Shown here: piece after piece, positions 13,450-51,603 of the stretch
How positions within the stretch are numbered: position 1 is the stretch's first letter
How the letters are laid out: each line of letters starts with the position of its first letter
NCBI RefSeq assembly: GCF_056746865.1
Contig: NZ_CM163382.1
DNA: 64,000 nucleotides
Reading direction: 5' to 3' (one strand)
The notes under the pieces: generated by a model
Databases searched by the model: none
Told to the model about the DNA's origin: nothing
The model's input: only the letters and a program-made list of their open reading frames with translations
Made by a program: the position numbers and the translations under genes

Positions 13450-14571
13450 TTATGACTCCAGCGCGATCGCCACGTCGTAGCCGTGAGATTTCAGCAGAGA
13501 GTGTTTTTTCGCCGCTTCGAGGTCATTAGCCACCATTTCAGACACCATCTCTCTGAGGGTGATTTCCGGTTTCCAGCCCAGTTTTTCGTGCGCTTTGGTC
13601 GGGTCGCCGAGCAGCGTTTCAACTTCTGCCGGACGGAAGTAACGCGGGTCAACGGCGATAATCACATCGCCCGGTTTAACGCCCGGCGCGTCATGCCCGG
13701 TGACGGAAACCACAATGCCCTTCTCTTCAACACCCGTGCCTTCAAAGCGCAGTTTGATGCCCAGCTGTGCTGCCGCCATTTCCACGAACTGACGTACGGA
13801 GTACTGAACGCCGGTCGCGATAACGAAATCTTCCGGCTGTTCCTGTTGCAGCATCATCCACTGCATTTTTACGTAGTCTTTGGCATGGCCCCAGTCACGC
13901 AGGGAATCCATATTGCCGAGGTACAGGCACGATTCCAGCCCCTGGGCGATGTTGGCGATTGCGCGGGTGATTTTGCGGGTAACGAAGGTTTCGCCGCGGC
14001 GCGGGGATTCATGGTTGAAGAGAATACCGTTACAGGCGTACATGCCGTAGGATTCGCGGTAGTTAACGGTGATCCAGTAGGCGTACAGTTTGGCGACAGC
14101 ATACGGAGAGCGTGGGTAGAACGGCGTGGTTTCTTTCTGCGGAATTTCCTGCACCAGACCGTACAGTTCAGAAGTGGAAGCCTGATAGAAACGAGTTTTC
14201 TTTTCCAGACCGAGGAAGCGGATCGCCTCGAGCAGGCGCAGCGTACCCATCGCATCAACGTCTGCGGTATATTCCGGTGACTCAAAAGAGACCGCAACGT
14301 GGCTCATTGCGCCCAGGTTATACACTTCATCCGGCTGCACTTCACGCAAAATGCGTGTCAGGTTGGAGGTATCACTCAGGTCGCCATAATGCAGATGGAA
14401 TTTCGGGTTGCAGGTGTGCGGATCCTGATAAATGTGATCCACGCGCTCGGTGTTGAATGACGATGCACGACGCTTAATACCATGCACCTCGTAACCTTTT
14501 TCCAGCAGAAACTCTGCCAGGTAAGAACCGTCTTGTCCGGTTACACCGGTGATGAGAGCGACTTTTGACAT
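13450..14571 (-). CDS. gmd: GDP-mannose 4,6-dehydratase Gmd (373 aa)
   Basis: ORF track 373 aa; N-terminal Rossmann motif ([19 protein letters not shown]) of short-chain dehydratases. Confidence 0.95.
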
Positions 14572-14596
14572 GTCTTATTCCTCTGTATTTTTGAAT

Positions 14597-15145
14597 TTAT
14601 TCAGTTTCAACGCGTTCGCGTATCACCACTGCGGGATTCCCCCGGCAAACCACATTTGCCGGAAGCGATTTAAAAACACTGCTTCGTGCACCCACGACGG
14701 TGCCGTCGCCGATTGTGACGCCTGGGGCAACAAAGACATCGGTTGCCAGCCAGCATTTCTCGCCAATCACAATAGGCGTGGCGTTAATGGTGAAATGTTG
14801 ACTTGCATGGTCGTGGCTACCGGTGCATAAATAACTTTTTTGCGATATCACCGAATGTGCGCCAATGGTTATTTCACCGAGGGTATATAAATTGACGTCA
14901 TCGCCGACCCACGCGTAATCACCTAAGGTTAATTTCCACGGATAGGTAATTTTTACTGACGGACGAATAACTACGTTTTTTCCTATTTTTGCGCCGAATA
15001 AACGTAATAAAAAAGCCCGCCAGCGATACAATACTTGTGGCGACCAGGCAAATATTGTTGCCTGTACTGCCCACCATAATTGCACTTTAATAGCGTTGCC
15101 GCCCCGGAACCCTTTCGGCACCGAGAAACCGCTTAAATCCTGCAT
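14597..15145 (-). CDS. wcaF: colanic acid acetyltransferase WcaF (hexapeptide-repeat family, 182 aa)
   Basis: ORF track 182 aa; left-handed beta-helix hexapeptide repeats; synteny. Confidence 0.9.
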   Translation of the reverse strand: MQDLSGFSVPKGFRGGNAIKVQLWWAVQATIFAWSPQVLYRWRAFLLRLFGAKIGKNVVIRPSVKITYPWKLTLGDYAWVGDDVNLYTLGEITIGAHSVISQKSYLCTGSHDHASQHFTINATPIVIGEKCWLATDVFVAPGVTIGDGTVVGARSSVFKSLPANVVCRGNPAVVIRERVETE

Positions 15146-15160
15146 CGTTTTCCCTTATAT

Positions 15161-15907
15161 TCAGCTTTTGTTATATAAGGCTTTCGTCTTTGAGGTAGTA
15201 CGTTGGCGTAAATGCCAGGATAATTCTGCCCAGAAGCCAGGCACATGTAATATCTGCCGTTGGACTTTTTTGGCGTCAGCACACAATTCCATATTATTGG
15301 TGGTTGATACCCCACCCATGGAAAATTCAGACACCAGGCCATTGAGTTTTTTAAATGCATAACCTGCTTTATACATTTTAGCTGCCAGCGCGTAATCAGA
15401 AGAAACTTTATATTCCAGGTCATAACGCCATTTTTTCAAACCGGATACCGGGAAAAATATCGCCTGATGGCTGGCGGGCAGGCTGTGATAAATATACCAA
15501 CCCGGTTTAGCACTACGCTTAATTTTATGCCCGTCGCCAAAATCCAGCAGCGCATCGCCGGTGATCATCATGTTATCTTTTTGCATTTTTAACTTACGGA
15601 CAAAATTTGCGGCATCCTGATGAAAAATATCGCCCGAATTGAGAAACAACGCGAACTTGCCTTGTGCCATCGCAATGCCCTTGTTCATGGCGTCGTAGAT
15701 ACCGTTATCTGGCTCGCTGACAAAGCGTAGGTTATAGATACTATTGAGATTTTCCAGATACTCACGGGTACCGTCGTTGGAACCGCCATCGACAACAATC
15801 CATTCGAAGCTGATATCGTCCGCCTGCGCCAGATGCGCCAGCGAGGCATGTGTTTTGACTATCCCTTCGAGGTTACGAAACGCGACAGTGATTATGCTAA
15901 GCAACAT
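15161..15907 (-). CDS. wcaE: colanic acid glycosyltransferase WcaE (GT2, 248 aa)
   Basis: ORF track 248 aa; GT2 signature ([16 protein letters not shown]); synteny. Confidence 0.9.
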
Positions 15908-15917
15908 GTTCTTATTC

Positions 15918-17135
15918 TTACCTCGTAATATTTAACGCTTTTCGCAAAATAAACGGACAGACGATTAAAAATGCATATTCCGGGCTAAATATCGAACCGG
16001 TAAAAAACAGCGATACCGGAGTAAAAAGATATAATTGCACGCGAAAATTGCGGTTATCACCAAAAGCGTTGATCATCATTTTTATCACTTTCCCCATGTA
16101 CCACAGCGATAAAAACACCGCGAACCAGGAAAAATAAATAATCAGCAGATACAAACCATTGTCTATGGTTTTTCCGACATCCGCACCGTTAAATATTCCG
16201 AATGATGCGACATATTCATAAAGTGAGCCAAATCTGACTACACCGTCAATATGGGTCAAAGAATAACCGACCATCACCAGCGGACCGACAATACGATAAT
16301 ACGATGACGATCCTTCCGTACCTAAATCGCCCAGACGGGTGGAAATATAAGGAAACGCGATTACCACACCAACCAGGAATACAGCCAGAGAAATCAATGC
16401 TAACGGTAACTTTTTCTTAATCGCCTCTTTATTCAGATATTGAAATGCCCACTCCAGCAAATAAAACAGGATAAAGGTCATAACCCCTGAAAACGATCCG
16501 GATAATATTATCCCTGCGAGAATCATAGCATCGGTTTTAGGCGTTTTGATACCAAACTGTTTGATGCTGAGCCAAATTGAGATTAATGCCAGAGCGAAAA
16601 ATGCCGGTTCGAAATAAAGTGCTGTCGTGCGCTTGCCGCCGAATTTAATGAAATTCAGCACATAGCTGTTGCTGTAAATCAGATATTTCGAAATCGACTC
16701 CATAATACTGCTGCCACCGGTGAGGATAATTTGCGCCATCTCCACCGCCGCCAGCGCCACCACCAGCCCGACCACCAGATAAAAGAAACGTAATATCTTG
16801 CGATGGTTGTGTGGCGAAATCGTTTTAAAGCGAATACTCCACACCATGCCAATAATGATCACAATATAGACAAACAGCATGGTTGATGTGACGTATTTAC
16901 TGGCATCCAGCGACTGACCAAACAGATAGTTAAACGCCGTGAGTCCCGCACCAATCCCTAAGGCAATCATCAATTTTTTAACGCTGATGCGTTCTAAAAA
17001 CAGCAGTAACAAGACAGGTAAAAAAGTGACGATGGTGATGGGGAAACTTTCGCCAAGCTGGGCGATTTTGACGTTAACCAGCAGGTAAATCAGCGGCAGC
17101 AACAGGTAGCTACAGATTCTGATAGAAGTTGACAT
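15918..17135 (-). CDS. wcaD: colanic acid polymerase WcaD (Wzy-like, 405 aa)
   Basis: ORF track frame 15918..17207; start placed at ATG (complement 17133-17135) giving [19 protein letters not shown]...; polytopic membrane protein; AT-rich gene. Confidence 0.88.
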
Positions 17136-18327
17136 ACTCCTCCAGCATCTGTTGTCCACTGTAGGCGGCGCGGCTGCGTTGGCTGAACTCAGCCAGCGTG
17201 GTACCAAATATCGCCTGCGCGATTTCCGGTTTGCTTAACTGCACCAGTTGCAGCACGTCTTCTTCGCTGACGGTTTTACCGCCGGATTTTTGCAACACTT
17301 CCCGCGCCGCATCGCTATGGGTGGCAATCACCGGCACGCCAATCGATAGCGCCTCACACAAAATCAGCGGGTAGTTATCGACGCGAGAACTGAACACCAG
17401 CGCATCCATCTGATTGAGCGCGCTCATCAGCTTACGTTTGTCGGTTTCAAAGCCGTGATTAACCACGTTGCCAGCGGTGAACGGCGAAAACTTACCAAAG
17501 GTATGCAGTTCGATTTTGTCGCCCAGCGCCATCATCTCGCGTACCAGTTGCTGGTTAGTTTTGCCGTCGTAACGCAGATCATGCGCCACCACCGCGATTT
17601 TCGGCTTGCCCTGGGTTTCGCGCACCGGAGGCAAGTCCGCCAGAATTGCTTCGGTTGCCATATCAATACCATTATTGATAATCCGGCAACGCCCTGGCCC
17701 GTACAGACTATTGAAAGCGTCAGCCACATGCTGGCTGGGGGAAATAAACTGACAGCCCAGCGCCAGCATCTCGCGGAATAACTGGCGTTTACCCGCCACC
17801 AGCTGGTGCGCGCGATCAATCTTCACCGGCGGATAGTTATTTAAGGTCGGGCATTTCTGGCAGCCCGTTTTCCAGCCTTCACAACCGTCAGTAAAGGCGC
17901 AGCGCCCGGTAACGCTCCAGTGGTCGTGCAGCGTCCAGACCAGAGTGACATCCGGTTTGTGGTTTTTCACCTTTTCGCAAAAGCGCACCACGCTCTTGAG
18001 ATTCAACCAGTAGCTGTGCAGCACATGAAAATGCAGGACCACCGGACCCGGTGTGCGAGTAATGGTGCGATATAACTCATTGAAATTGCCAAACAGATCG
18101 CGATTAAACAGACGAAACAGTGCAATGTTCGCCATCGCGGTCATCCGCGGCGTATGTTTGATGACCTGCGGATAGTTCTGATGGCTGACGCTCTCTTTGC
18201 CGCCTTTGCCGTAACCGTAGACAAAATGTGACGCCAGCCCCTGTTGCAGCGCACGCTGGTGGAGATCTAACGCCACACCTGCTGCCCCGCCTTCCGCCAG
18301 TCGCACATTAAATTGCAGAATATTCAT
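17110..18327 (-). CDS. wcaC: colanic acid glycosyltransferase WcaC (405 aa)
   Basis: ORF track 405 aa; overlaps wcaD start by 26 nt; synteny. Confidence 0.9.
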   Translation of the reverse strand: MNILQFNVRLAEGGAAGVALDLHQRALQQGLASHFVYGYGKGGKESVSHQNYPQVIKHTPRMTAMANIALFRLFNRDLFGNFNELYRTITRTPGPVVLHFHVLHSYWLNLKSVVRFCEKVKNHKPDVTLVWTLHDHWSVTGRCAFTDGCEGWKTGCQKCPTLNNYPPVKIDRAHQLVAGKRQLFREMLALGCQFISPSQHVADAFNSLYGPGRCRIINNGIDMATEAILADLPPVRETQGKPKIAVVAHDLRYDGKTNQQLVREMMALGDKIELHTFGKFSPFTAGNVVNHGFETDKRKLMSALNQMDALVFSSRVDNYPLILCEALSIGVPVIATHSDAAREVLQKSGGKTVSEEDVLQLVQLSKPEIAQAIFGTTLAEFSQRSRAAYSGQQMLEEYVNFYQNL

Positions 18328-19654: not shown

Positions 19655-19696
19655 AGGTTGTTCTCCCGGCTTATGAGCTTGTTTGCTTGCCGGATG

Positions 19697-19732
19697 CGGC
19701 GTGAGCGCCTTATCCGGCCTACGGGGCGGTGC
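19697..19732. repeat. REP element (gccggatgcggcgtgagcgccttatccggcctac)
   Basis: REP consensus-like palindrome in the wzc-wcaA gap. Confidence 0.5.
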
Positions 19733-22360: not shown

Positions 22361-23500
22361 TTACCAGTTATGAATGTCGCTGGCTGTATCCGTCATGTAA
22401 CGGACACCGCTAATAGTTGGCAGCAACTGATTGATCAGACGGTTCCAGCGGGAAACCGGGGCGGTGGTGACATACACCACGTCATAAGGTTGCAGGCGGA
22501 ATTCTGTCGCCATCACCAGCGACGTCGCATCGGACATATCCAGCTGGTAGATATTGGCAATCTTGCCGTTACGCCCGCCCTCGCCTTTCAACGGACGAAT
22601 GACAAAGATGCCGCTGGCGTTGGAGGTGGTCATGTCGATGCCTTCGGCATTGCCCAGAGCTTCAGTCAGGGTCATGCCGCTAAAGTCCATTTTCAGGGTG
22701 CTCTGTTTCTTCACTTCACCCATCACAAATACTTTCAGATCATCATTACGCGGCACGTAGAGAATATCGCCGGGATAAAGCAGTCGGTTCTGATTGAGGT
22801 CGCCGTTTTGCATCAGCGCCTGCAAAGAAATGCGTTCTTCACGACCATTGTGTGTTAGCACCACGTTGCGCCAGTCAGCGGTGTCGGTCAGACCACCTGC
22901 GGCGTTGATGGCGTCGAGAATGGTCAGTGGTACGTTGGTGATCGCCTGTTGACCGGATTTATTCACCTGACCTGAGATATAGGCCTTTTGCGAGCGGAAG
23001 GCGGCGATATTAACGTCCACCTGCGGGTCAGCGATGTACGTCGCTAAGCGCCCGGTAATATCACTGCGGATTTCAGCGAGCGTTTTCCCGACTACGTGGA
23101 CCTTGCCGATATACGGGTAAAACATAGTGCCGTCAGGCTGTACCCAGTTGCCGGTGTCGCTGGAGCTGCGGTACTGACCGGCTGGCGTGGTGAGTTCCGG
23201 GTGATCCCAGACGGTGACATTAAGAACGTCCCCCGGCCCGACGCGATACTGGTAATTCGCGATCTCACTTTCCAGCGTCATATTGGGGCGCGCTACATTC
23301 GGGCGTGGGCGTAATTGGTCAATCAGGCGCGGGGTCAGCGGATAAACATTCACCATTTTGTCGAGATCGAAATCAGCGTCCTGCTGTTTGATGACGTCTT
23401 TGCCCATCGTCGACATATTGCTGCCCGGAAGTACTGTGCAACCGCTTATCAAGGTTACTGACACCAATAATGGCATCAATTTCATTTTGGATTTCATCAT
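22361..23500 (-). CDS. wza: outer-membrane polysaccharide export lipoprotein Wza (379 aa)
   Basis: ORF track 379 aa; lipoprotein signal ending LISGC; first gene of the cluster. Confidence 0.92.
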
Positions 23501-23678: not shown

Positions 23679-23690
23679 CACGCTACCGCC
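23679..23690 (-). promoter_or_regulatory. ops element (GGCGGTAGCGTG on the transcribed strand) within a JUMPstart-type leader of the wza operon; RfaH recruitment site
   Basis: Plus strand reads cacgctaccgcc; reverse complement is the 12-nt ops consensus GGCGGTAGnnTG; ~180 nt upstream of the wza start codon. Confidence 0.6.
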
Positions 23691-23903
23691 CCTGGCTTTT
23701 TAGCTACCAATACACTGATTTAGTTTAATTTTTCACACCCTCTCAGCATGCAGTCGTTGATGAGAAAGGGTTATTACGGAAATTAACTTCCGAATATAAG
23801 GTGACATTATGGTAATTGAATATTGGCTTTCCAATAATGCAGGAGGAAGTGTTACAGCTAACGGAATAGCAGGCAAGGTAACAATTCGGCAATTGGCTAT
23901 TTT

Positions 23904-25816: not shown

Positions 25817-26155
25817 ATGAGAAAAAAGCTGGCTTTTCTTGATACCAGTCTTGACGATTTACGCGCATTTCCAGAATCGTCTCGACAGGAAATTGGCTAT
25901 CAACTCGACAGGATCCAACAAGGGTTAAACCCATACGACTGGAAACCTTTTTCAACTATCGGCCCTGGTGTGCGAGAGATTCGTACTCGCGATGCTGATG
26001 GGATCTATCGCGTCATGTATGTCGCAAAATTTGAAGAAGCGGTTTACGTATTGCATTGTTTTCAAAAGAAAACACAGACTACCAGTCAATCGGATATTGA
26101 TTTAGCCAAACGACGCTATAAAGAACTTGTTCAGGAGCGGAAAAATGAAAATTGA
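25817..26155 (+). CDS. type II toxin, RelE/ParE superfamily, HigB / phage Gp49-like (112 aa)
   Basis: ORF track 112 aa; small basic protein with C-terminal block VYVLHCFQKKTQTTSQSDIDLAKRRY typical of HigB/Gp49-like toxins; toxin-first order with an overlapping downstream HTH gene. Confidence 0.75.
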   Translation: MRKKLAFLDTSLDDLRAFPESSRQEIGYQLDRIQQGLNPYDWKPFSTIGPGVREIRTRDADGIYRVMYVAKFEEAVYVLHCFQKKTQTTSQSDIDLAKRRYKELVQERKNEN

Positions 26156-26435
26156 AACCTTTGATAGTGTGTGGGATGCGGTGAGTGACACCCCTGAACA
26201 AGCGGAAAATATGCGGATCCGTGCCGAACTTGTTACGATCATTAATAACTGGATTGAACAACAAGGGTTTAGCCAGGCTCAGGCAGCGTCTGCTTTAGGG
26301 GTCACTCAACCTCGCATATCTGAACTTGCCAGAGGTAAAATCCAGATCTTTAGTATCGATAAATTGATCACCATGATGGCTCATGCAGGGTTGCATATTC
26401 AACGTATTGAAGTTCAATATCCACATGCTGCTTAG
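26145..26435 (+). CDS. HTH XRE-family antitoxin (HigA-like, 96 aa)
   Basis: ORF track frame 26127..26435; start placed at ATG 26145 (MKIETFDSVW...), overlapping the toxin stop by 11 nt (ATGAAAATTGA); helix-turn-helix region QAQAASALGVTQPRISELARGK. Confidence 0.75.
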   Translation: MKIETFDSVWDAVSDTPEQAENMRIRAELVTIINNWIEQQGFSQAQAASALGVTQPRISELARGKIQIFSIDKLITMMAHAGLHIQRIEVQYPHAA

Positions 26436-39140: not shown

Positions 39141-39796
39141 ACTGACGTCCAGCCTTTTGGCGCTTCCAGCACAACTTCCGTTCCCGGCGTGGAGCGGGAA
39201 ACCGAACGCAGCGAACTGGATAACCAGCTAAACAGTTCACGGAATTGTAATCCCTGCAGTGGCAAAGGCTGACGAACGCTGATTTGTGCCAAAGTCTTCA
39301 TATCCGCCCCCTGAACACCGATGGAAAAGAAGGCAAACTTCTTATCTTCTTCCCCCTGAAACACTTTGTTGGCGGCAGCCTGCCACTCATCGGTTGGTGC
39401 GCCATCAGTGATCAGGAAAATCCACGGACGATAATAGGAAATACCATTGGCGCGATACTCACGTTTGCGCTCCTCAACCATATCCAGGGCTTTGGTAATG
39501 GCGGCCCCCATTGGTGTATCGCCTTGGGCAAACAGGATGGGCGGGAAAAAATTAGCGGCGCTGGTAAAGGGTTGTTCCACATGCACCGGGCCGAACGTCA
39601 CAATGCCGAGTTCCACTCTTTTTAAGGCCAGCGAATCGGCAAGCAGCTCATCGCGAAAGGTAACCAATCCGGCGTTAAGTTCATTAATAGGTCTACCGTT
39701 CATAGAACCAGAAACATCCAGCAGCAAAATGCAGGGGCAACGTGGTTCCGGGTTACTGGCAAAATCGCTGGTGGCAAACATGATTTGTTCGCTCAT
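39137..39796 (-). CDS. yegL: von Willebrand factor A (vWA) domain protein YegL (TerY-like, 219 aa)
   Basis: ORF track 219 aa; MIDAS motif DVSGSM; 4-nt overlap with yegK. Confidence 0.9.
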
Positions 39797-39976
39797 AAGA
39801 AATCCTTTCTTAGAGAATTATTGAGGTCCGGTATCATACCGATTGCAATAATGAAATAAGAGCAAACGAAGAAACTTTCAGAATTAGGCCCGGCGGCGCA
39901 GAAAATTTTGCTATTCGCCTCGCAAGAACGGAGAGCCGTCGATTGACACTAAGGGCGGAGTGACATAATTTCAGGA

Positions 39977-40120
39977 GTGAGGGTTAGGGAGAGGTTTCCC
40001 CCTCCCCCTGGTGTTCTTAGTAAGCCTGGAAGCTAATCACTAAGAGTATCACCAGTATGATGACGTGCTTCATCATAACCCTTTCCTTATTAAAAGCCCT
40101 CTTCTCCGGGAGAGGGTTTC
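39977..40120 (+). ncRNA. sibA: Sib-family antisense sRNA (antitoxin of ibs copy 1); ends approximate
   Basis: Plus-strand TTGACA (39943-39948) with downstream -10-like cataat; GC hairpin gccctcttctccgggagagggt + T-run at ~40096-40120; fully covers the ibs ORF on the opposite strand. Confidence 0.5.
40017..40076 (-). CDS. ibsA: type I toxin Ibs family, 19 aa: MMKHVIILVILLVISFQAY
   Basis: Reverse complement of 40017-40076 translated by hand; hydrophobic Ibs-type peptide; too short for the ORF track. Confidence 0.8.
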   Translation of the reverse strand: MMKHVIILVILLVISFQAY

Positions 40121-40312
40121 CCGTTTCAGCGTCCCGCTGAAATCGTCGGCTTACCTCCTTTCGCCCTGAATGCAGTCTATCGCTAACGCGTGAACAAAAT
40201 AGTTTCCTCTGTGATTATTGCGTAACGACTCGCAAAGAATATTTGCTGGCAGGATCGCAGACTGCAAAGCCTGCAGATTGACAATCTTATCGTGAAGGCA
40301 TACTTTCAGGAG

Positions 40313-40446
40313 TGAGGGTAGAGCGGGGTTTCCCCCGCCCTGGTAGTCTTAGTATGCTGGGTAGCTAATCACTAAGAGCACCACGATGATGAGTATCTTC
40401 ATCATGACCCTTTCCTTATTTAAGGCCCCTTCCTCGGGAGGGGCTT
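40313..40446 (+). ncRNA. Sib-family antisense sRNA (copy 2); ends approximate
   Basis: TTGACA at 40278-40283, 17-nt spacer, -10-like tacttt; terminator hairpin ggccccttcctcgggaggggc + ttt at 40423-40446. Confidence 0.5.
40348..40404 (-). CDS. type I toxin Ibs family, 18 aa: MMKILIIVVLLVISYPAY
   Basis: Hand translation of reverse complement; IbsB-like. Confidence 0.75.
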
Positions 40447-40640
40447 TCCCGTTTCAGCGTCCCGCTAAAATCGTCGGCTTACCTCCTTTCGCCCTGAATG
40501 CAGTCTATCGCTAACGCGTGAACAAAATAGTTTCCTCTGTGATTATTGCGTAACGACTCGCAAAGAATATTTGCTGGCAGGATCGCAGACTGCAAAGCCT
40601 GCAGATTGACAATCTTATCGTGAAGGCATACTTTCAGGAG

Positions 40641-40775
40641 TGAGGGTAGAGCGGGGGTTCCCCCGCCCTGGTAGTCTTAGTAAGCCGGGAAGCTTATGAC
40701 TAAGAGCACCACGATGATGATCCACTTCATCATGACCCTTTCCTTATTTAAGGCCCCTTCCTCGGGAGGGGCTTT
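40641..40775 (+). ncRNA. Sib-family antisense sRNA (copy 3); ends approximate
   Basis: Same promoter and terminator architecture as copy 2 (TTGACA 40606-40611; hairpin ~40752-40775). Confidence 0.5.
40677..40733 (-). CDS. type I toxin Ibs family, 18 aa: MMKWIIIVVLLVISFPAY
   Basis: Hand translation of reverse complement; IbsB-like. Confidence 0.75.
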   Translation of the reverse strand: MMKWIIIVVLLVISFPAY

Positions 40776-50203: not shown

Positions 50204-51603
50204 AGTTCTGGCGACCCGGTATTACCGGCAAACTGTTTCTGGCGATTTTCGCCACCTGCATTGTCTTGCTGATCAGTATGCACTGGGCGGTGCGTATCAG
50301 TTTTGAGCGTGGCTTTATTGATTACATCAAGCATGGTAATGAACAGCGATTACAACTGTTAAGTGATGCGCTTGGCGAGCAGTATGCGCAGCATGGCAAC
50401 TGGCGCTTCCTGCGCAACAATGATCGCTTTGTCTTTCAGATCTTGCGTTCATTTGAACACGATAATTCGGAAGATAAACCCGGCCCGGGTATGCCGCCGC
50501 ACGGCTGGCGTACCCAGTTCTGGGTGGTCGATCAAAACAACAAAGTGCTGGTTGGTCCGCGAGCGCCGATTCCACCTGACGGTACACGGCGACCCATTCT
50601 GGTCAACGGTGCGGAAGTGGGTGCGGTGATTGCCTCCCCTGTTGAGCGACTGACCCGCAATACTGATATCAATTTCGATAAACAACAGCGGCAAACCAGC
50701 TGGCTGATTGTTGCTCTGGCAACGTTACTCGCGGCACTCGCTACCTTTCTGCTGGCGCGTGGTTTGCTGGCACCGGTAAAACGGCTGGTGGACGGCACGC
50801 ACAAACTGGCGGCGGGCGATTTCACTACCCGCGTAACGCCCACCAGTGAAGATGAACTGGGCAAACTGGCGCAAGACTTCAACCAGCTTGCCAGCACGCT
50901 GGAGAAAAACCAGCAAATGCGGCGCGATTTTATGGCCGATATTTCTCACGAACTGCGTACGCCATTAGCGGTGCTGCGCGGTGAACTGGAAGCCATTCAG
51001 GATGGCGTGCGTAAATTCACGCCGGAGACGGTGGCGTCTTTACAGGCGGAGGTCGGTACACTGACCAAACTGGTTGACGATCTCCATCAGTTGTCGATGT
51101 CTGATGAAGGCGCTCTCGCCTATCAAAAAGCACCGGTAGATTTGATCCCACTGCTGGAAGTGGCGGGCGGCGCATTTCGCGAACGATTCGCCAGCCGTGG
51201 CCTGAAACTGCAATTTTCCCTGCCAGACAGTATTACCGTATTTGGCGATCGCGACCGTTTAATGCAGTTATTCAATAACTTACTGGAAAACAGCCTGCGC
51301 TACACTGACAGCGGCGGTAGCCTGAAAATCTCTGCCGGGCAGCACGACAAAACGGTGCGACTGACCTTTGCCGACAGCGCGCCGGGCGTCAGTGACGATC
51401 AGCTACAAAAATTGTTTGAACGTTTTTATCGCACCGAAGGTTCCCGCAACCGAGCCAGCGGCGGTTCCGGGCTGGGGCTGGCGATTTGCCTGAACATTGT
51501 TGAAGCACATAATGGTCGCATTATTGCTGCCCATTCGCCTTTTGGCGGGGTAAGCATTACAGTAGAGTTACCGCTGGAACGGGATTTACAGAGAGAAGTA
51601 TGA
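50200..51603 (+). CDS. baeS: envelope-stress sensor histidine kinase BaeS (467 aa)
   Basis: ORF track 467 aa; H-box [11 protein letters not shown]; 4-nt overlap with mdtD. Confidence 0.92.

Follow-up and report, generated by a model that had tools for sequence, protein, structure and literature searches.

A family-wide AT-rich trough inside the colanic acid operon that behaves as a maintained state

The genes wcaD, wcaE and wcaF of the colanic acid operon of Escherichia coli share an AT-rich trough that is family-wide, is not bounded by genes and behaves as a maintained state, which is what is new here; the basic dip was already known, per-gene GC values of 42.4, 45.9 and 47.5% that display it having been tabulated for STEC strains (PMC5359238). 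At roughly even odds (a probability of about 0.5), we propose that these three genes are vertically inherited and that their AT-richness is an ancestral trough, common to the family and held in place, rather than the scar of a transfer, whether recent or fading. Maintenance at the level of the segment is the firm part of this explanation. A low GC content in genes for polymerases and other polysaccharide functions is commonly taken as proof of horizontal transfer, and the same signature, here in a cluster vertically inherited across a whole family, offers a clean natural test between a transfer scar and a selected state. The comparative data favor a selected or constrained state and thus urge caution in composition-based transfer calls.

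The locus and the shape of the dip

The window analyzed here, a 64,000-nt stretch of the E. coli chromosome, carries the colanic acid cluster on its minus strand in the canonical order wza-wzb-wzc-wcaABCDEF-gmd-fcl-gmm-wcaI-cpsBG-wcaJ-wzxC-wcaKLM, bounded by galF and yegH/asmA. This order follows a RefSeq-annotated locus whose sequence is 100% identical at positions 14000 to 18000 of the window, and the open reading frames of the window agree with it. The three products match their equivalog families over their full lengths (WcaD, 873 bits against a cutoff of 590; WcaE, 512 against 369; WcaF, 401 against 326) (Table 1). The ops element GGCGGTAGCGTG is matched exactly at 23679-23690; it lies with the JUMPstart RNA in the wza leader. 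The operon is an RfaH target, and an RfaH ChIP signal is on record at wza-wcaM (PMC9765446). No mobility genes, tRNAs or repeats are annotated between wcaC and gmd or at the borders of the block. An Rfam scan of 12 to 25 kb found no real match to a known RNA family in the block, the only matches being the upstream JUMPstart and a REP-like one at 19685. The locus is a standard operon with good annotation, and it contains no new system.

Table 1. Features of the colanic acid cluster discussed in the text (positions in the window)
Feature	Position	Strand	Description	Basis
wcaD	15918..17135	-	Colanic acid (Wzy-type) polymerase, 405 aa	RefSeq annotation of identical sequence; NCBIfam TIGR04010 equivalog
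wcaE	15161..15907	-	GT2 glycosyltransferase, colanic acid synthesis, 248 aa	Annotation; TIGR04009 equivalog; Pfam PF00535
wcaF	14597..15145	-	Hexapeptide-repeat acetyltransferase, colanic acid synthesis, 182 aa	Annotation; TIGR04008 equivalog; Pfam PF00132
JUMPstart RNA and ops element	23679..23717	-	wza leader	Rfam RF01707, 57.3 bits, E = 3e-11
wcaC 3' end/wcaD 5' end overlap	17110..17135	-	26 nt	ORF coordinates; sequence; synonymous conservation windows wcaC 392-405 and wcaD 1-10
GC3 trough	14422..16697		wcaD codon ~147 via wcaE and wcaF to gmd codon ~50	Two-breakpoint fit
wcaD codons 1-146	16698..17135	-	Low total GC only from amino-acid composition	GC3 and AT-to-GC rate flank-like
gmd codons 1-50	14422..14571	-	Low-GC3 5' end of GDP-mannose dehydratase gene	Pooled GC3 0.50 vs 0.68 in the rest
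Tract 1 in wcaD, codons 181-198	16542..16595	-	~55 nt nearly invariant at synonymous sites	58 species
Tract 2 in wcaD, codons 310-318	16182..16208	-	27 nt nearly invariant	Non-optimal TCA and GGA in 58/58 species

The original prediction of an AT-rich wcaF-wcaE-wcaD block inside an otherwise GC-balanced operon is confirmed: the GC content of 14597-17135 is 0.4455 (44.6%), as against 0.537 (53.7%) in the remaining cluster, 0.554 and 0.532 in the 5-kb flanks of the block and a window mean of 0.519. Sliding-window GC reveals a clear dip, the block being the lowest 2.5-kb stretch of the 64 kb; 0.39% of all 2539-nt segments are equally low, the minimum (0.443) lies at 14552, and values between 15900 and 16600 run from 0.365 to 0.45. 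The expected ranking, with wcaD lowest, then wcaE and then wcaF, holds for total GC (0.436, 0.454 and 0.483), and all three lie below the neighboring genes (0.51 to 0.56). At third codon positions (GC3), the values are 0.514 for wcaD, 0.502 for wcaE and 0.470 for wcaF, compared with 0.60 to 0.70 in the neighbors. Set against nearby E. coli genes outside the capsule cluster (mean GC3, 0.578; sd, 0.066), the three genes fall at about the 10th percentile, and the remaining genes of the cluster occupy the upper half of the range. The composition had been likened to that of Wzy-type polymerase and flippase genes; the polymerase half of this likeness stands, in that low GC is a commonly reported property of wzy genes (PMC12004945), but the flippase half does not apply, since the GC3 of wzxC (0.705) exceeds that of every other gene in the cluster.

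When GC3 is pooled across 58 species, a two-breakpoint fit delimits a trough of ~2.3 kb (GC3 0.503, against 0.687 beyond it) with a total GC of 0.443. The synonymous trough is not bounded by genes, its borders lying inside wcaD and gmd. In E. coli, the GC3 of wcaD is 0.613 over codons 10-146 and 0.456 over codons 147-405, a step seen in 58/58 species; in the pooled data, codons 9-133 are at 0.65 to 0.70, like the flanks, and the onset falls at codon ~134-147. On the other side, E. coli gmd has a GC3 of 0.50 in codons 1-50 and 0.656 thereafter. In the pooled data (0.50 against 0.68), this 5' dip is the largest among 16 genes, and as those of the others reach 0.10 to 0.14, part of it may be a general 5' effect. 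The lowest 300 nt within the trough have a GC of 0.34 to 0.43 in each of the 58 species. Near the start of wcaD, the sole conserved rare codon is AGA at codon 6; it and the other invariant synonymous sites there are explained by the 26-nt overlap with wcaC.

Two tracts within wcaD are nearly invariant. In the codons neighboring tract 1, nearly every third position is variable; RNAalifold predicts for the tract a weak RNA structure (-7.6 kcal/mol) with essentially no covariation. Tract 2 lies just upstream of a partly conserved promoter-like match (TAGACA-16-GATTAT, 16165..16138, minus strand). Across the 14- to 18-kb region, sites resembling promoters or terminators do not exceed the shuffled expectation, and a search for overlapping or antisense genes found no conserved open alternative frame longer than those in flanking genes.

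Conservation and substitution regime

From 123 species loci confirmed by tblastn, 80 were examined, and the dip, measured against the flanks of the same clusters, is present in 73/73 comparable loci from other Enterobacteriaceae species of >25 genera (mean 0.153). In 54/65 loci, wcaD, wcaE and wcaF are the three genes of lowest GC3. WcaD ranks with the best-conserved proteins of the cluster, at 82 to 94% identity across genera (mean 89%), and its family is isolated, the next full-length relative being 46% identical. Divergence of the three genes at four-fold sites equals that of the flanks, and their pairwise distances track those of the flanks (r = 0.86 to 0.88). Trees of wcaD/E/F disagree with that of the upstream block at an RF value of 0.40 (null, 0.22), those of gmd-fcl-gmm at 0.39, and three-way distances with outgroups return the same topology for all blocks. 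Within E. coli, the distribution is not patchy: the block is single-copy, with 96.6 to 100% nucleotide identity, in 4791 of 5426 complete genomes (88%), and in 75 genomes the colanic cluster is replaced by mosaic capsule loci with a different polymerase. The order C-D-E-F-(gmd-fcl-gmm)-I is kept in distant homologous clusters of 36% and 58% GC, in which no comparable E/F dip is seen. As the dip is old, common to >25 genera and apparently held in place, it provides no evidence of recent gene swapping.

The synonymous substitutions within the trough differ from those of the flanks in one direction. The AT-to-GC (W>S) rate is 0.058 to 0.060 in the trough and 0.099 in the flanks (odds ratio, 0.56 to 0.58; p ~1e-24; 11 independent species triplets), such replacements being ~45% rarer in the trough, and the reverse (S>W) rate is 0.073 to 0.078 versus 0.076 (p = 0.46 to 0.62; ratio, 0.96 to 1.03). 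On stratification by codon family, the W>S deficit persists (Mantel-Haenszel odds ratio, 0.55; p = 3e-25), with the trough lower in 15 of 16 families, and the maximum-likelihood equilibrium GC of the trough is below that of the flanks in 12/12 triplets. The step inside wcaD recurs here, W>S rates being 0.082 in codons 10-146, as in the flanks, and 0.044 in codons 147-405 (p = 2e-4). Amelioration, that is, a host-like substitution process with net flux toward host composition, is not what is observed: the trough has 361 W>S and 409 S>W changes and thus no AT-to-GC excess, with the qualification for the W>S counts that, in simulations, parsimony counting in the presence of strong rate differences among sites can produce an apparent W>S deficit even when decay is neutral. 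Given this mimicry, the case for maintenance rests on the unchanged S>W rate, for which neutral decay predicts a ratio of at least 1.27, and on a damped response to lineage GC shifts; rate-class, intragenic and independent-contrast tests were added in view of the simulation result.

In phylogenetically independent contrasts, the trough responds to GC shifts of the lineage with a slope of 0.54 to 0.58 +/- 0.06 of that of the flanks, against a null of 0.94 +/- 0.06 from random flank subsets, and the dip is larger in species with GC-richer flanks. When sites are classed by rate, the GC of flanks and trough is nearly equal at fast synonymous sites (0.535 vs 0.494) and stands at 0.906 vs 0.355 at invariant ones; the dip is concentrated in slowly evolving sites with conserved, often non-optimal A/T-ending codons. 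With rare and optimal codon counts as the measure of codon usage bias, optimal codons make up 79% of slow sites in the flanks and 55% in the trough, and rare codons are enriched in wcaD/E/F over the 58 species (ATA 4.5x, TTA 4.3x, AGA 6.5x). The invariant trough codons include ATT, TAT, GAT, TCA, TTA, GGA and ATA, and non-optimal codons ending in T or A stay unchanged, by the dozen, in 55 to 58 of 58 species, on a tree along which typical sites have undergone ~8.5 changes.

Competing explanations and a possible mechanism

Acquisition of wcaD, wcaE and wcaF by recent or recurrent exchange between polysaccharide loci, as had been suggested for them, would accord with the classic link between low-GC wzy-type genes and transfer, with a tree disagreement above its null and with the mosaic capsule loci that replace the cluster in some E. 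coli genomes. It is, however, already largely refuted and in our estimation very improbable, as the trough is universal and sits at the same position in every genus, WcaD is conserved and its family isolated, synonymous divergence equals that of the flanks, the tree disagreement is no worse than that of gmd-fcl-gmm, gene order extends to distant clusters, the block is single-copy and nearly identical throughout 4791 E. coli genomes, and its borders are free of mobility genes, tRNAs and repeats. A scar decaying toward host composition is likewise at odds with the W>S deficit, the equal S>W rate and the shallow contrast slope. The broader suggestion of a mosaic history survives in one form, for which the borders inside wcaD and gmd leave room: a single, very old homologous replacement of ~2.3 kb, from wcaD codon ~147 to gmd codon ~50, preceding the divergence of the genera, by a low-GC version of the same module that would since have drifted neutrally toward the host, with slow sites keeping the AT bias of the donor. 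Highly conserved gmd is a natural crossover site, a low-GC colanic-like cluster of the same order exists in the Klebsiella-type capsule pool (L083; GC3 0.20 to 0.34), the fast synonymous sites are already equalized, the enriched codons are those typical of low-GC DNA, and simulation can reproduce some of the W>S deficit. Such a relic should nevertheless show the raised S>W ratio and a contrast slope near 1, neither of which is observed, and the segment has no net AT-to-GC flux; it also fits poorly with the many invariant non-optimal codons and with trough proteins that are no closer than flank proteins to the low-GC homologue, all blocks sharing one three-way topology. We regard it as rather unlikely, though deserving of serious consideration.

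Two further readings place the cause in the proteins. Non-optimal A/T-ending codons could slow or limit translation of WcaD, and of WcaE and WcaF, as has been proposed for O-antigen Wzy proteins that need scarcity or slow membrane insertion; a review of Wzy proteins relates the belief that rare codons and low GC hold their expression down (PMC12004945), and both the enrichment of rare codons and the conservation of individual non-optimal ones across 58 species point the same way. Against this, the trough ignores gene borders, covers two soluble enzymes and reaches into gmd; the first ~133-146 codons of wcaD, said to be where Wzy rare codons cluster, have a normal GC3 and a flank-like W>S rate; and on the same transcript the genes for other glycosyltransferases, for a second acetyltransferase (WcaB) and for the membrane-bound WzxC, WcaJ and Wzc are GC3-rich, which together leave a translational throttle quite improbable. 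Alternatively, the dip might be a pure by-product of the high Phe, Ile, Leu, Tyr, Asn and Lys content of a hydrophobic membrane protein. The total-GC dip of wcaD is indeed partly due to amino-acid composition, with a GC of 0.387 at the first two codon positions compared with ~0.48 to 0.53 in the neighbors, and this composition accounts for the low total GC of codons 1-146. Yet the GC3 expected from each gene's own amino-acid composition and the synonymous usage of the flanks is 0.62 to 0.65, leaving deficits of z = -5.8 for wcaD, -4.0 for wcaE and -5.4 for wcaF; the dip is still 0.175 when standardized by codon family; WcaF is normal at the first two positions (0.494); and WzxC, also a polytopic membrane protein, is encoded by the GC3-richest gene of the cluster. 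As a complete account, this by-product is scarcely credible, and the residual GC3 deficit shows that amino-acid composition is not the only cause.

Since the trough begins and ends without regard to reading frames and spares the 5' third of wcaD, the constraint that would hold it in place is most likely on the DNA or RNA and not on the amount of each protein. One tentative possibility, and our preferred mechanism, is a role for H-NS and RfaH. The trough would be the sole H-NS/StpA-prone AT-rich block in an otherwise GC-normal operon; it might impose further silencing or polarity on wcaD to wcaI, or hold a silenced internal start site for them, and RNA polymerase would pass it once RfaH had been loaded at ops in the wza leader. 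Over several hundred base pairs, the AT content of the trough clearly exceeds the genome average, as in H-NS-silenced DNA; its GC of 43 to 49%, being only moderately AT-rich, counts against such a role. Deletion of hns also acts through rcsA. In an hns deletion mutant of EAEC 042 at 25°C, wcaD, wcaE, wcaF, gmd, fcl, gmm and wcaI, at 288- to 582-fold, are in the genome-wide top 34, from which wza to wcaC are absent, the list being a top-N one without values for wza-wcaC (PMC7582179). Other published observations also agree with a role at the DNA level: Nac gives a ChIP peak within wcaE, where induction is 9.8-fold (PMC5217608), and wcaF and wcaE are the sole capsule genes among the top-induced genes of another study, which also include prophage, mat and fim genes (PMC5320621). 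H-NS is stated in the text of one study to bind wza-wcaM, an ops/RfaH locus, at its promoter-proximal end (PMC9765446). The high-affinity H-NS motif TCGATAAATT has three matches with at most two mismatches in 14422-16697, not more than elsewhere, and our literature search returned no direct study of H-NS, Rho or an internal promoter at wcaD/E. In a stronger and doubtful version, the low GC would be adaptive, a selected DNA-level H-NS/StpA gate, or else a silenced internal start, that has persisted from the time the colanic cluster arose, with expression of wcaD to wcaM dependent on RfaH and temperature and with tracts 1 and 2 as the functional core. If this were so, the low GC long known for wzy-type genes would, in some instances at least, reflect selection instead of marking a past transfer.

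Comparison with known polysaccharide loci

Earlier arguments from composition reportedly centered on the high GC of the colanic cluster and of the GDP-fucose/mannose genes. The wza-wcaM clusters of E. coli K-12 and Salmonella enterica (Stevenson et al. 1996; Stevenson, Lan and Reeves 2000, "complex history," pmid 11004393) have the same genes, order and chromosomal place, and the locus itself is no different. As in the low-GC wzy and wzx genes of O-antigen and capsule clusters, the GC of wcaD is below its surroundings, with an excess of rare A-ending codons (PMC12004945). Typical O-antigen and capsule Wzy proteins are, however, hypervariable, unlike the conserved, vertically inherited WcaD; in the colanic cluster, the 5' third of the polymerase gene is spared, the trough takes in two soluble enzymes and the start of gmd, and the flippase gene is GC-rich. 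O-antigen clusters are also reported at below 40% GC (PMC5359238), compared with 44% for the wcaD-F block.

Operons of the RfaH/ops type (rfb/wzx, kps, hly and rfa), which are silenced during elongation by H-NS-StpA filaments (PMC9765446, PMC4337669), share with the colanic operon the JUMPstart/ops leader and an AT-rich stretch within the operon, and wza-wcaM is reported to be bound by RfaH and, promoter-proximally, by H-NS. They are AT-rich throughout, whereas the colanic operon is so only in a 2.3-kb internal block, a candidate H-NS site. A further parallel is L083, a Klebsiella-type group 1 capsule locus (GCA_022258985.1) in which homologues of wcaC-D-E-F-gmd-fcl-gmm-wcaI-wcaJ-wcaM, with 44 to 89% amino-acid identity, stand in the same order between wzi-wza-wzb-wzc and gnd. 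Tracts 1 and 2 are not conserved in it at the nucleotide level. L083 was considered as a donor and rejected, being no closer a relative of the colanic trough than of its flanks. Its module is uniformly AT-rich, with no separate D/E/F dip, in contrast to the internal trough of the colanic operon.

The low-GC block and its surroundings

The wcaF-wcaE-wcaD block had been described in the original prediction as AT-rich, and the quantitative GC profile bears this out. The block has a GC content of 44.6%, as against 53.7% in the remaining cluster and 55.4% and 53.2% in the 5 kb on either side. Across the 64 kb, no more than 0.39% of windows of this length reach so low a value, and the lowest of all is at 14552. 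Per-gene GC is 0.483 (wcaF), 0.454 (wcaE), and 0.436 (wcaD), with neighbors at 0.51-0.56, and GC at third codon positions (GC3) is 0.47-0.51 versus 0.60-0.70 in the neighboring genes. These GC3 deficits persist after conditioning on amino acid content and the synonymous usage of the flanks (z = -5.8, -4.0, and -5.4 for wcaD, wcaE, and wcaF). When set against 23 neighboring non-capsule genes (GC3 0.578 +/- 0.066), the three genes fall near the 10th percentile and the other cluster genes in the upper half. Membrane-protein composition, considered as a cause, accounts for no more than the low GC of wcaD at codon positions 1 and 2; the highest GC3 in the cluster (0.705) belongs to WzxC, likewise a polytopic membrane protein. 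The operon is thoroughly known, and the dip within it is a real compositional feature with strong statistical support. It can already be read from published tables, where per-gene GC values of 42.4, 45.9, and 47.5% are given for STEC strains (PMC5359238). In the window, the last gene of the cluster, wcaM, also has a low GC3 (0.546; z = -3.5 after amino acid correction).

Features of the colanic-acid cluster and of the low-GC3 segment in the window
Feature	Position	Strand	Remarks
Colanic-acid (M-antigen) cluster	wcaM (874-2268) to wza (22361-23500)	minus	galF and yegH as flanking genes
wcaF	14597-15145	minus	NCBIfam equivalog, full-length, well above cutoff; hexapeptide-repeat domain
wcaE	15161-15907	minus	NCBIfam equivalog, full-length, well above cutoff; GT2 domain
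wcaD	15918-17135	minus	NCBIfam equivalog, full-length, well above cutoff
Low-GC3 trough	~14422-16697		wcaD GC3 0.613 before step, 0.456 after
Tract 1	16542-16595 (~55 nt)	minus	wcaD codons 181-198; near-invariant synonymous positions, 58 species
Tract 2	16182-16208 (27 nt)	minus	wcaD codons 310-318; near-invariant synonymous positions, 58 species
REP/naRNA4-like element	19685-19719	minus	between wzc and wcaA; Rfam RF02564, 37 bits, below gathering score
JUMPstart RNA with exact ops element	23679-23717		wza leader

The window is part of an E. coli chromosome. Over 14000-18000 it shares 100% identity with strains AR13438 and F11, and 4,811 of 5,426 complete genomes contain similar sequence. From ~23634 onward, just upstream of wza, the window departs from AR13438 (first mismatches at position 134 of the fetched AR13438 locus), a hint of a recombination breakpoint close to the wza leader. 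A second exact ops-like match, GGCGGTAGCCTG at 51313-51324 (plus strand), lies by coordinates in or near baeS/baeR and is probably one of the nonfunctional intragenic ops sites described previously (PMC9765446). A small low-GC insert between yegH and asmA (25817-26435) encodes, in genes with GC3 of 0.36-0.39, a RelE/ParE-type toxin and an HTH antitoxin; the window's sole perfect match to TCGATAAATT, at 26356, also falls inside it. Farther on, ibsA and four more copies stand in tandem at ~39280-40650, making five type I toxin genes of the Ibs family; in the annotated relative their spacing is ~328 nt.

Conservation of the block across Enterobacteriaceae

The original prediction had further likened the low GC to that of acquired or exchanged Wzy-type polymerase and flippase genes, as a suggestion of a mosaic history for the cluster; as far back as the history can be recovered, this reading is not supported. 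Among 80 species-level loci from >25 Enterobacteriaceae genera, fetched from a WcaD alignment and with 16 cluster genes located per locus, every one of the 73 scorable loci shows the GC3 dip (mean 0.153, range 0.077-0.214), and wcaD, wcaE, and wcaF are the three lowest-GC3 genes in 54/65. Identity of WcaD to the window protein averages 89% (82-94%), a conservation on par with Wza or CpsB, and the WcaD family is isolated among 1.84 billion representative proteins, the next full-length relative being 46% identical. Divergence at four-fold sites, as a fraction of saturation, is alike in the block (0.69-0.82) and its flanks (~0.72). Pairwise protein distances of the block agree with those of the upstream and downstream blocks (r = 0.86-0.88), and its tree disagreement (RF) with the upstream block, 0.40 where resampling gives a null of 0.22, is matched by that of gmd-fcl-gmm (0.39). 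In 4,791 E. coli genomes, the block occurs once, at 96.6-100% identity. Since the dip is universal, WcaD is conserved, divergence and distances are flank-like, and the neighborhood is kept in distant relatives (a capsule locus, L083, and two metagenomic contigs), the three genes are an old, integral part of the colanic-acid module, with no exchange seen in its observable history.

A trough bounded within genes, with an apparent synonymous-site regime of its own

GC3 pooled over 58 species reveals that the low segment is not bounded by genes. Codons 9-133 of wcaD are flank-like (0.65-0.70), GC3 drops at codon ~134-147, and it is back up from gmd codon ~50; in the best fit with two breakpoints, it is 0.503 inside the segment and 0.687 outside. 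The step within wcaD is seen in 58/58 species (mean 0.21), and the 5' dip of gmd is likewise universal, with 5' dips of 0.10-0.14 in other genes too. Codons adjoining tracts 1 and 2 are free to vary; no conserved overlapping frame, RNA structure, or strong promoter was found to account for the invariance of the tracts, which are not kept in the 44%-identical homolog of L083.

One explanation for the trough is a neutral relic, with the same process acting on trough and flanks from different starting points. Synonymous changes polarized in 11 independent species triplets give similar GC-to-AT rates (block 0.0775, flanks 0.0758, p = 0.62) and an AT-to-GC rate 40% lower in the block (0.0597 versus 0.0992, odds ratio [OR] 0.58, p = 3e-24); stratified by codon family, the OR is 0.55 (p = 3e-25), with the block lower in 15/16 families. 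A three-taxon likelihood fit places equilibrium GC lower in the block in 12/12 triplets, and the switch is intragenic (AT-to-GC 0.082 in wcaD codons 10-146, 0.044 in 147-405, p = 2e-4). In simulation, neutral decay scored by parsimony under strong among-site rate variation can imitate the low AT-to-GC rate. In that case the GC-to-AT ratio should come out at 1.27 or above, and the observed ratio does not. Two further tests are independent of parsimony direction. By site-rate class, GC at fast synonymous sites is nearly equal (trough 0.494, flanks 0.535) and at invariant ones far apart (0.355 versus 0.906); slow sites carry optimal codons (CTG, CAG, ACC, and others) at 79% in flanks versus 55% in the trough, where ATT, TAT, GAT, TCA, TTA, GGA, and ATA are among those fixed in 55-58 of the 58 species. 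In phylogenetically independent contrasts, the trough tracks lineage GC3 shifts at a slope of 0.54-0.58 +/- 0.06, as against 0.94 +/- 0.06 for same-size random flank subsets; the low slope survives standardizing for codon-family content, and GC-richer flanks go with a larger dip. A same-process model predicts a slope near 1, and we conclude that the trough appears to have its own synonymous-site regime, close to steady state. Its origin may lie in ancient recombination, of which a phylogenetic trace was looked for and none found.

As to mechanism, for which we infer every step, a simple per-protein translational throttle fits poorly because the trough borders disregard reading frames, the trough leaves out the 5' third of wcaD, although rare codons are said to act in the 5' part of Wzy genes (PMC12004945), and GC3-rich enzymes and membrane proteins are encoded elsewhere in the same transcript. 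A constraint at the DNA or RNA level fits better. We tentatively favor an H-NS/StpA-prone internal block, which RfaH-modified polymerase would traverse, or a silenced internal start, because in every species the block alone within the operon has 300-nt windows of 34-43% GC, because RfaH acts on the operon through ops and H-NS binds its promoter-proximal end (PMC9765446), and because published lists pick out exactly this part of it. In delta-hns EAEC 042 at 25 C, wcaD, wcaE, wcaF, gmd, fcl, gmm, and wcaI rise 288- to 582-fold, within the genome-wide top 34, from which wza to wcaC are absent (PMC7582179); Nac binds inside wcaE, with 9.8-fold induction (PMC5217608); and a list made up mainly of prophage, mat, and fim genes has wcaF and wcaE as its sole capsule genes (PMC5320621). 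All of this support is indirect, and the block is not enriched in the H-NS motif, promoter-like sites, or RNA structure. That the trough is a selected intra-operon silencing element we consider unlikely, at roughly one chance in five. What is new here is evidence for an ancestral trough that belongs to a segment rather than to genes and is maintained, so that the locus can serve to test the widespread assumption that polysaccharide genes of low GC have been transferred.

Variant, replacement, and distant clusters

Several loci depart from the usual pattern outside the block. In Buttiauxella warmboldiae (L046), wcaA and wcaB have GC3 of 0.49 and 0.48 versus ~0.65 in all other species and may have been locally replaced. 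In two Atlantibacter loci (L074, L081), fcl (0.56-0.58) and cpsB (0.52-0.55) lie well under their neighbors, wzxC is within 10 kb, and cpsG was not found; their GDP-fucose/mannose part looks replaced or rearranged. Salmonella enterica subsp. arizonae (L035) has GC3 of 0.69-0.77 from gmd to cpsG versus 0.61-0.68 from wza to wcaC, a split that fits the "complex history" in the title of Stevenson, Lan & Reeves 2000.

The 75 weak matches in E. coli trace to WcaF-family genes of Klebsiella-type capsule loci, which stand in place of the colanic cluster in 75 genomes. One such wzi-type locus at the cluster's site (E. coli P21_SE1_04.20, L085, 1-28272), bordered by ISKpn26 and IS1 remnants, encodes a WcaF-family acetyltransferase, gmd, fcl, gmm, a WbuB-like transferase, wcaJ, and a different polymerase (O-antigen ligase family).

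Among distant relatives, the two metagenomic contigs have a WcaD-GT2-acetyltransferase(-WcaI) arrangement, and L083 (assembly GCA_022258985.1, contig DAGPKX010000033.1, 1-21203; 36% GC) has homologs in the order wcaC-D-E-F-gmd-fcl-gmm-wcaI-wcaJ-wcaM. In L083 and the 58%-GC contig L086, the two relatives with composition measured, wcaE and wcaF resemble their neighbors. The complete colanic-like module of L083 (40-89% amino acid identity, uniform GC3 of 0.20-0.34) is carried in a Klebsiella-type capsule locus (wzi-wza-wzb-wzc ... gnd-manC), possibly one for a colanic-acid-like K antigen; an entry in a reference list cites K21 as structurally related.
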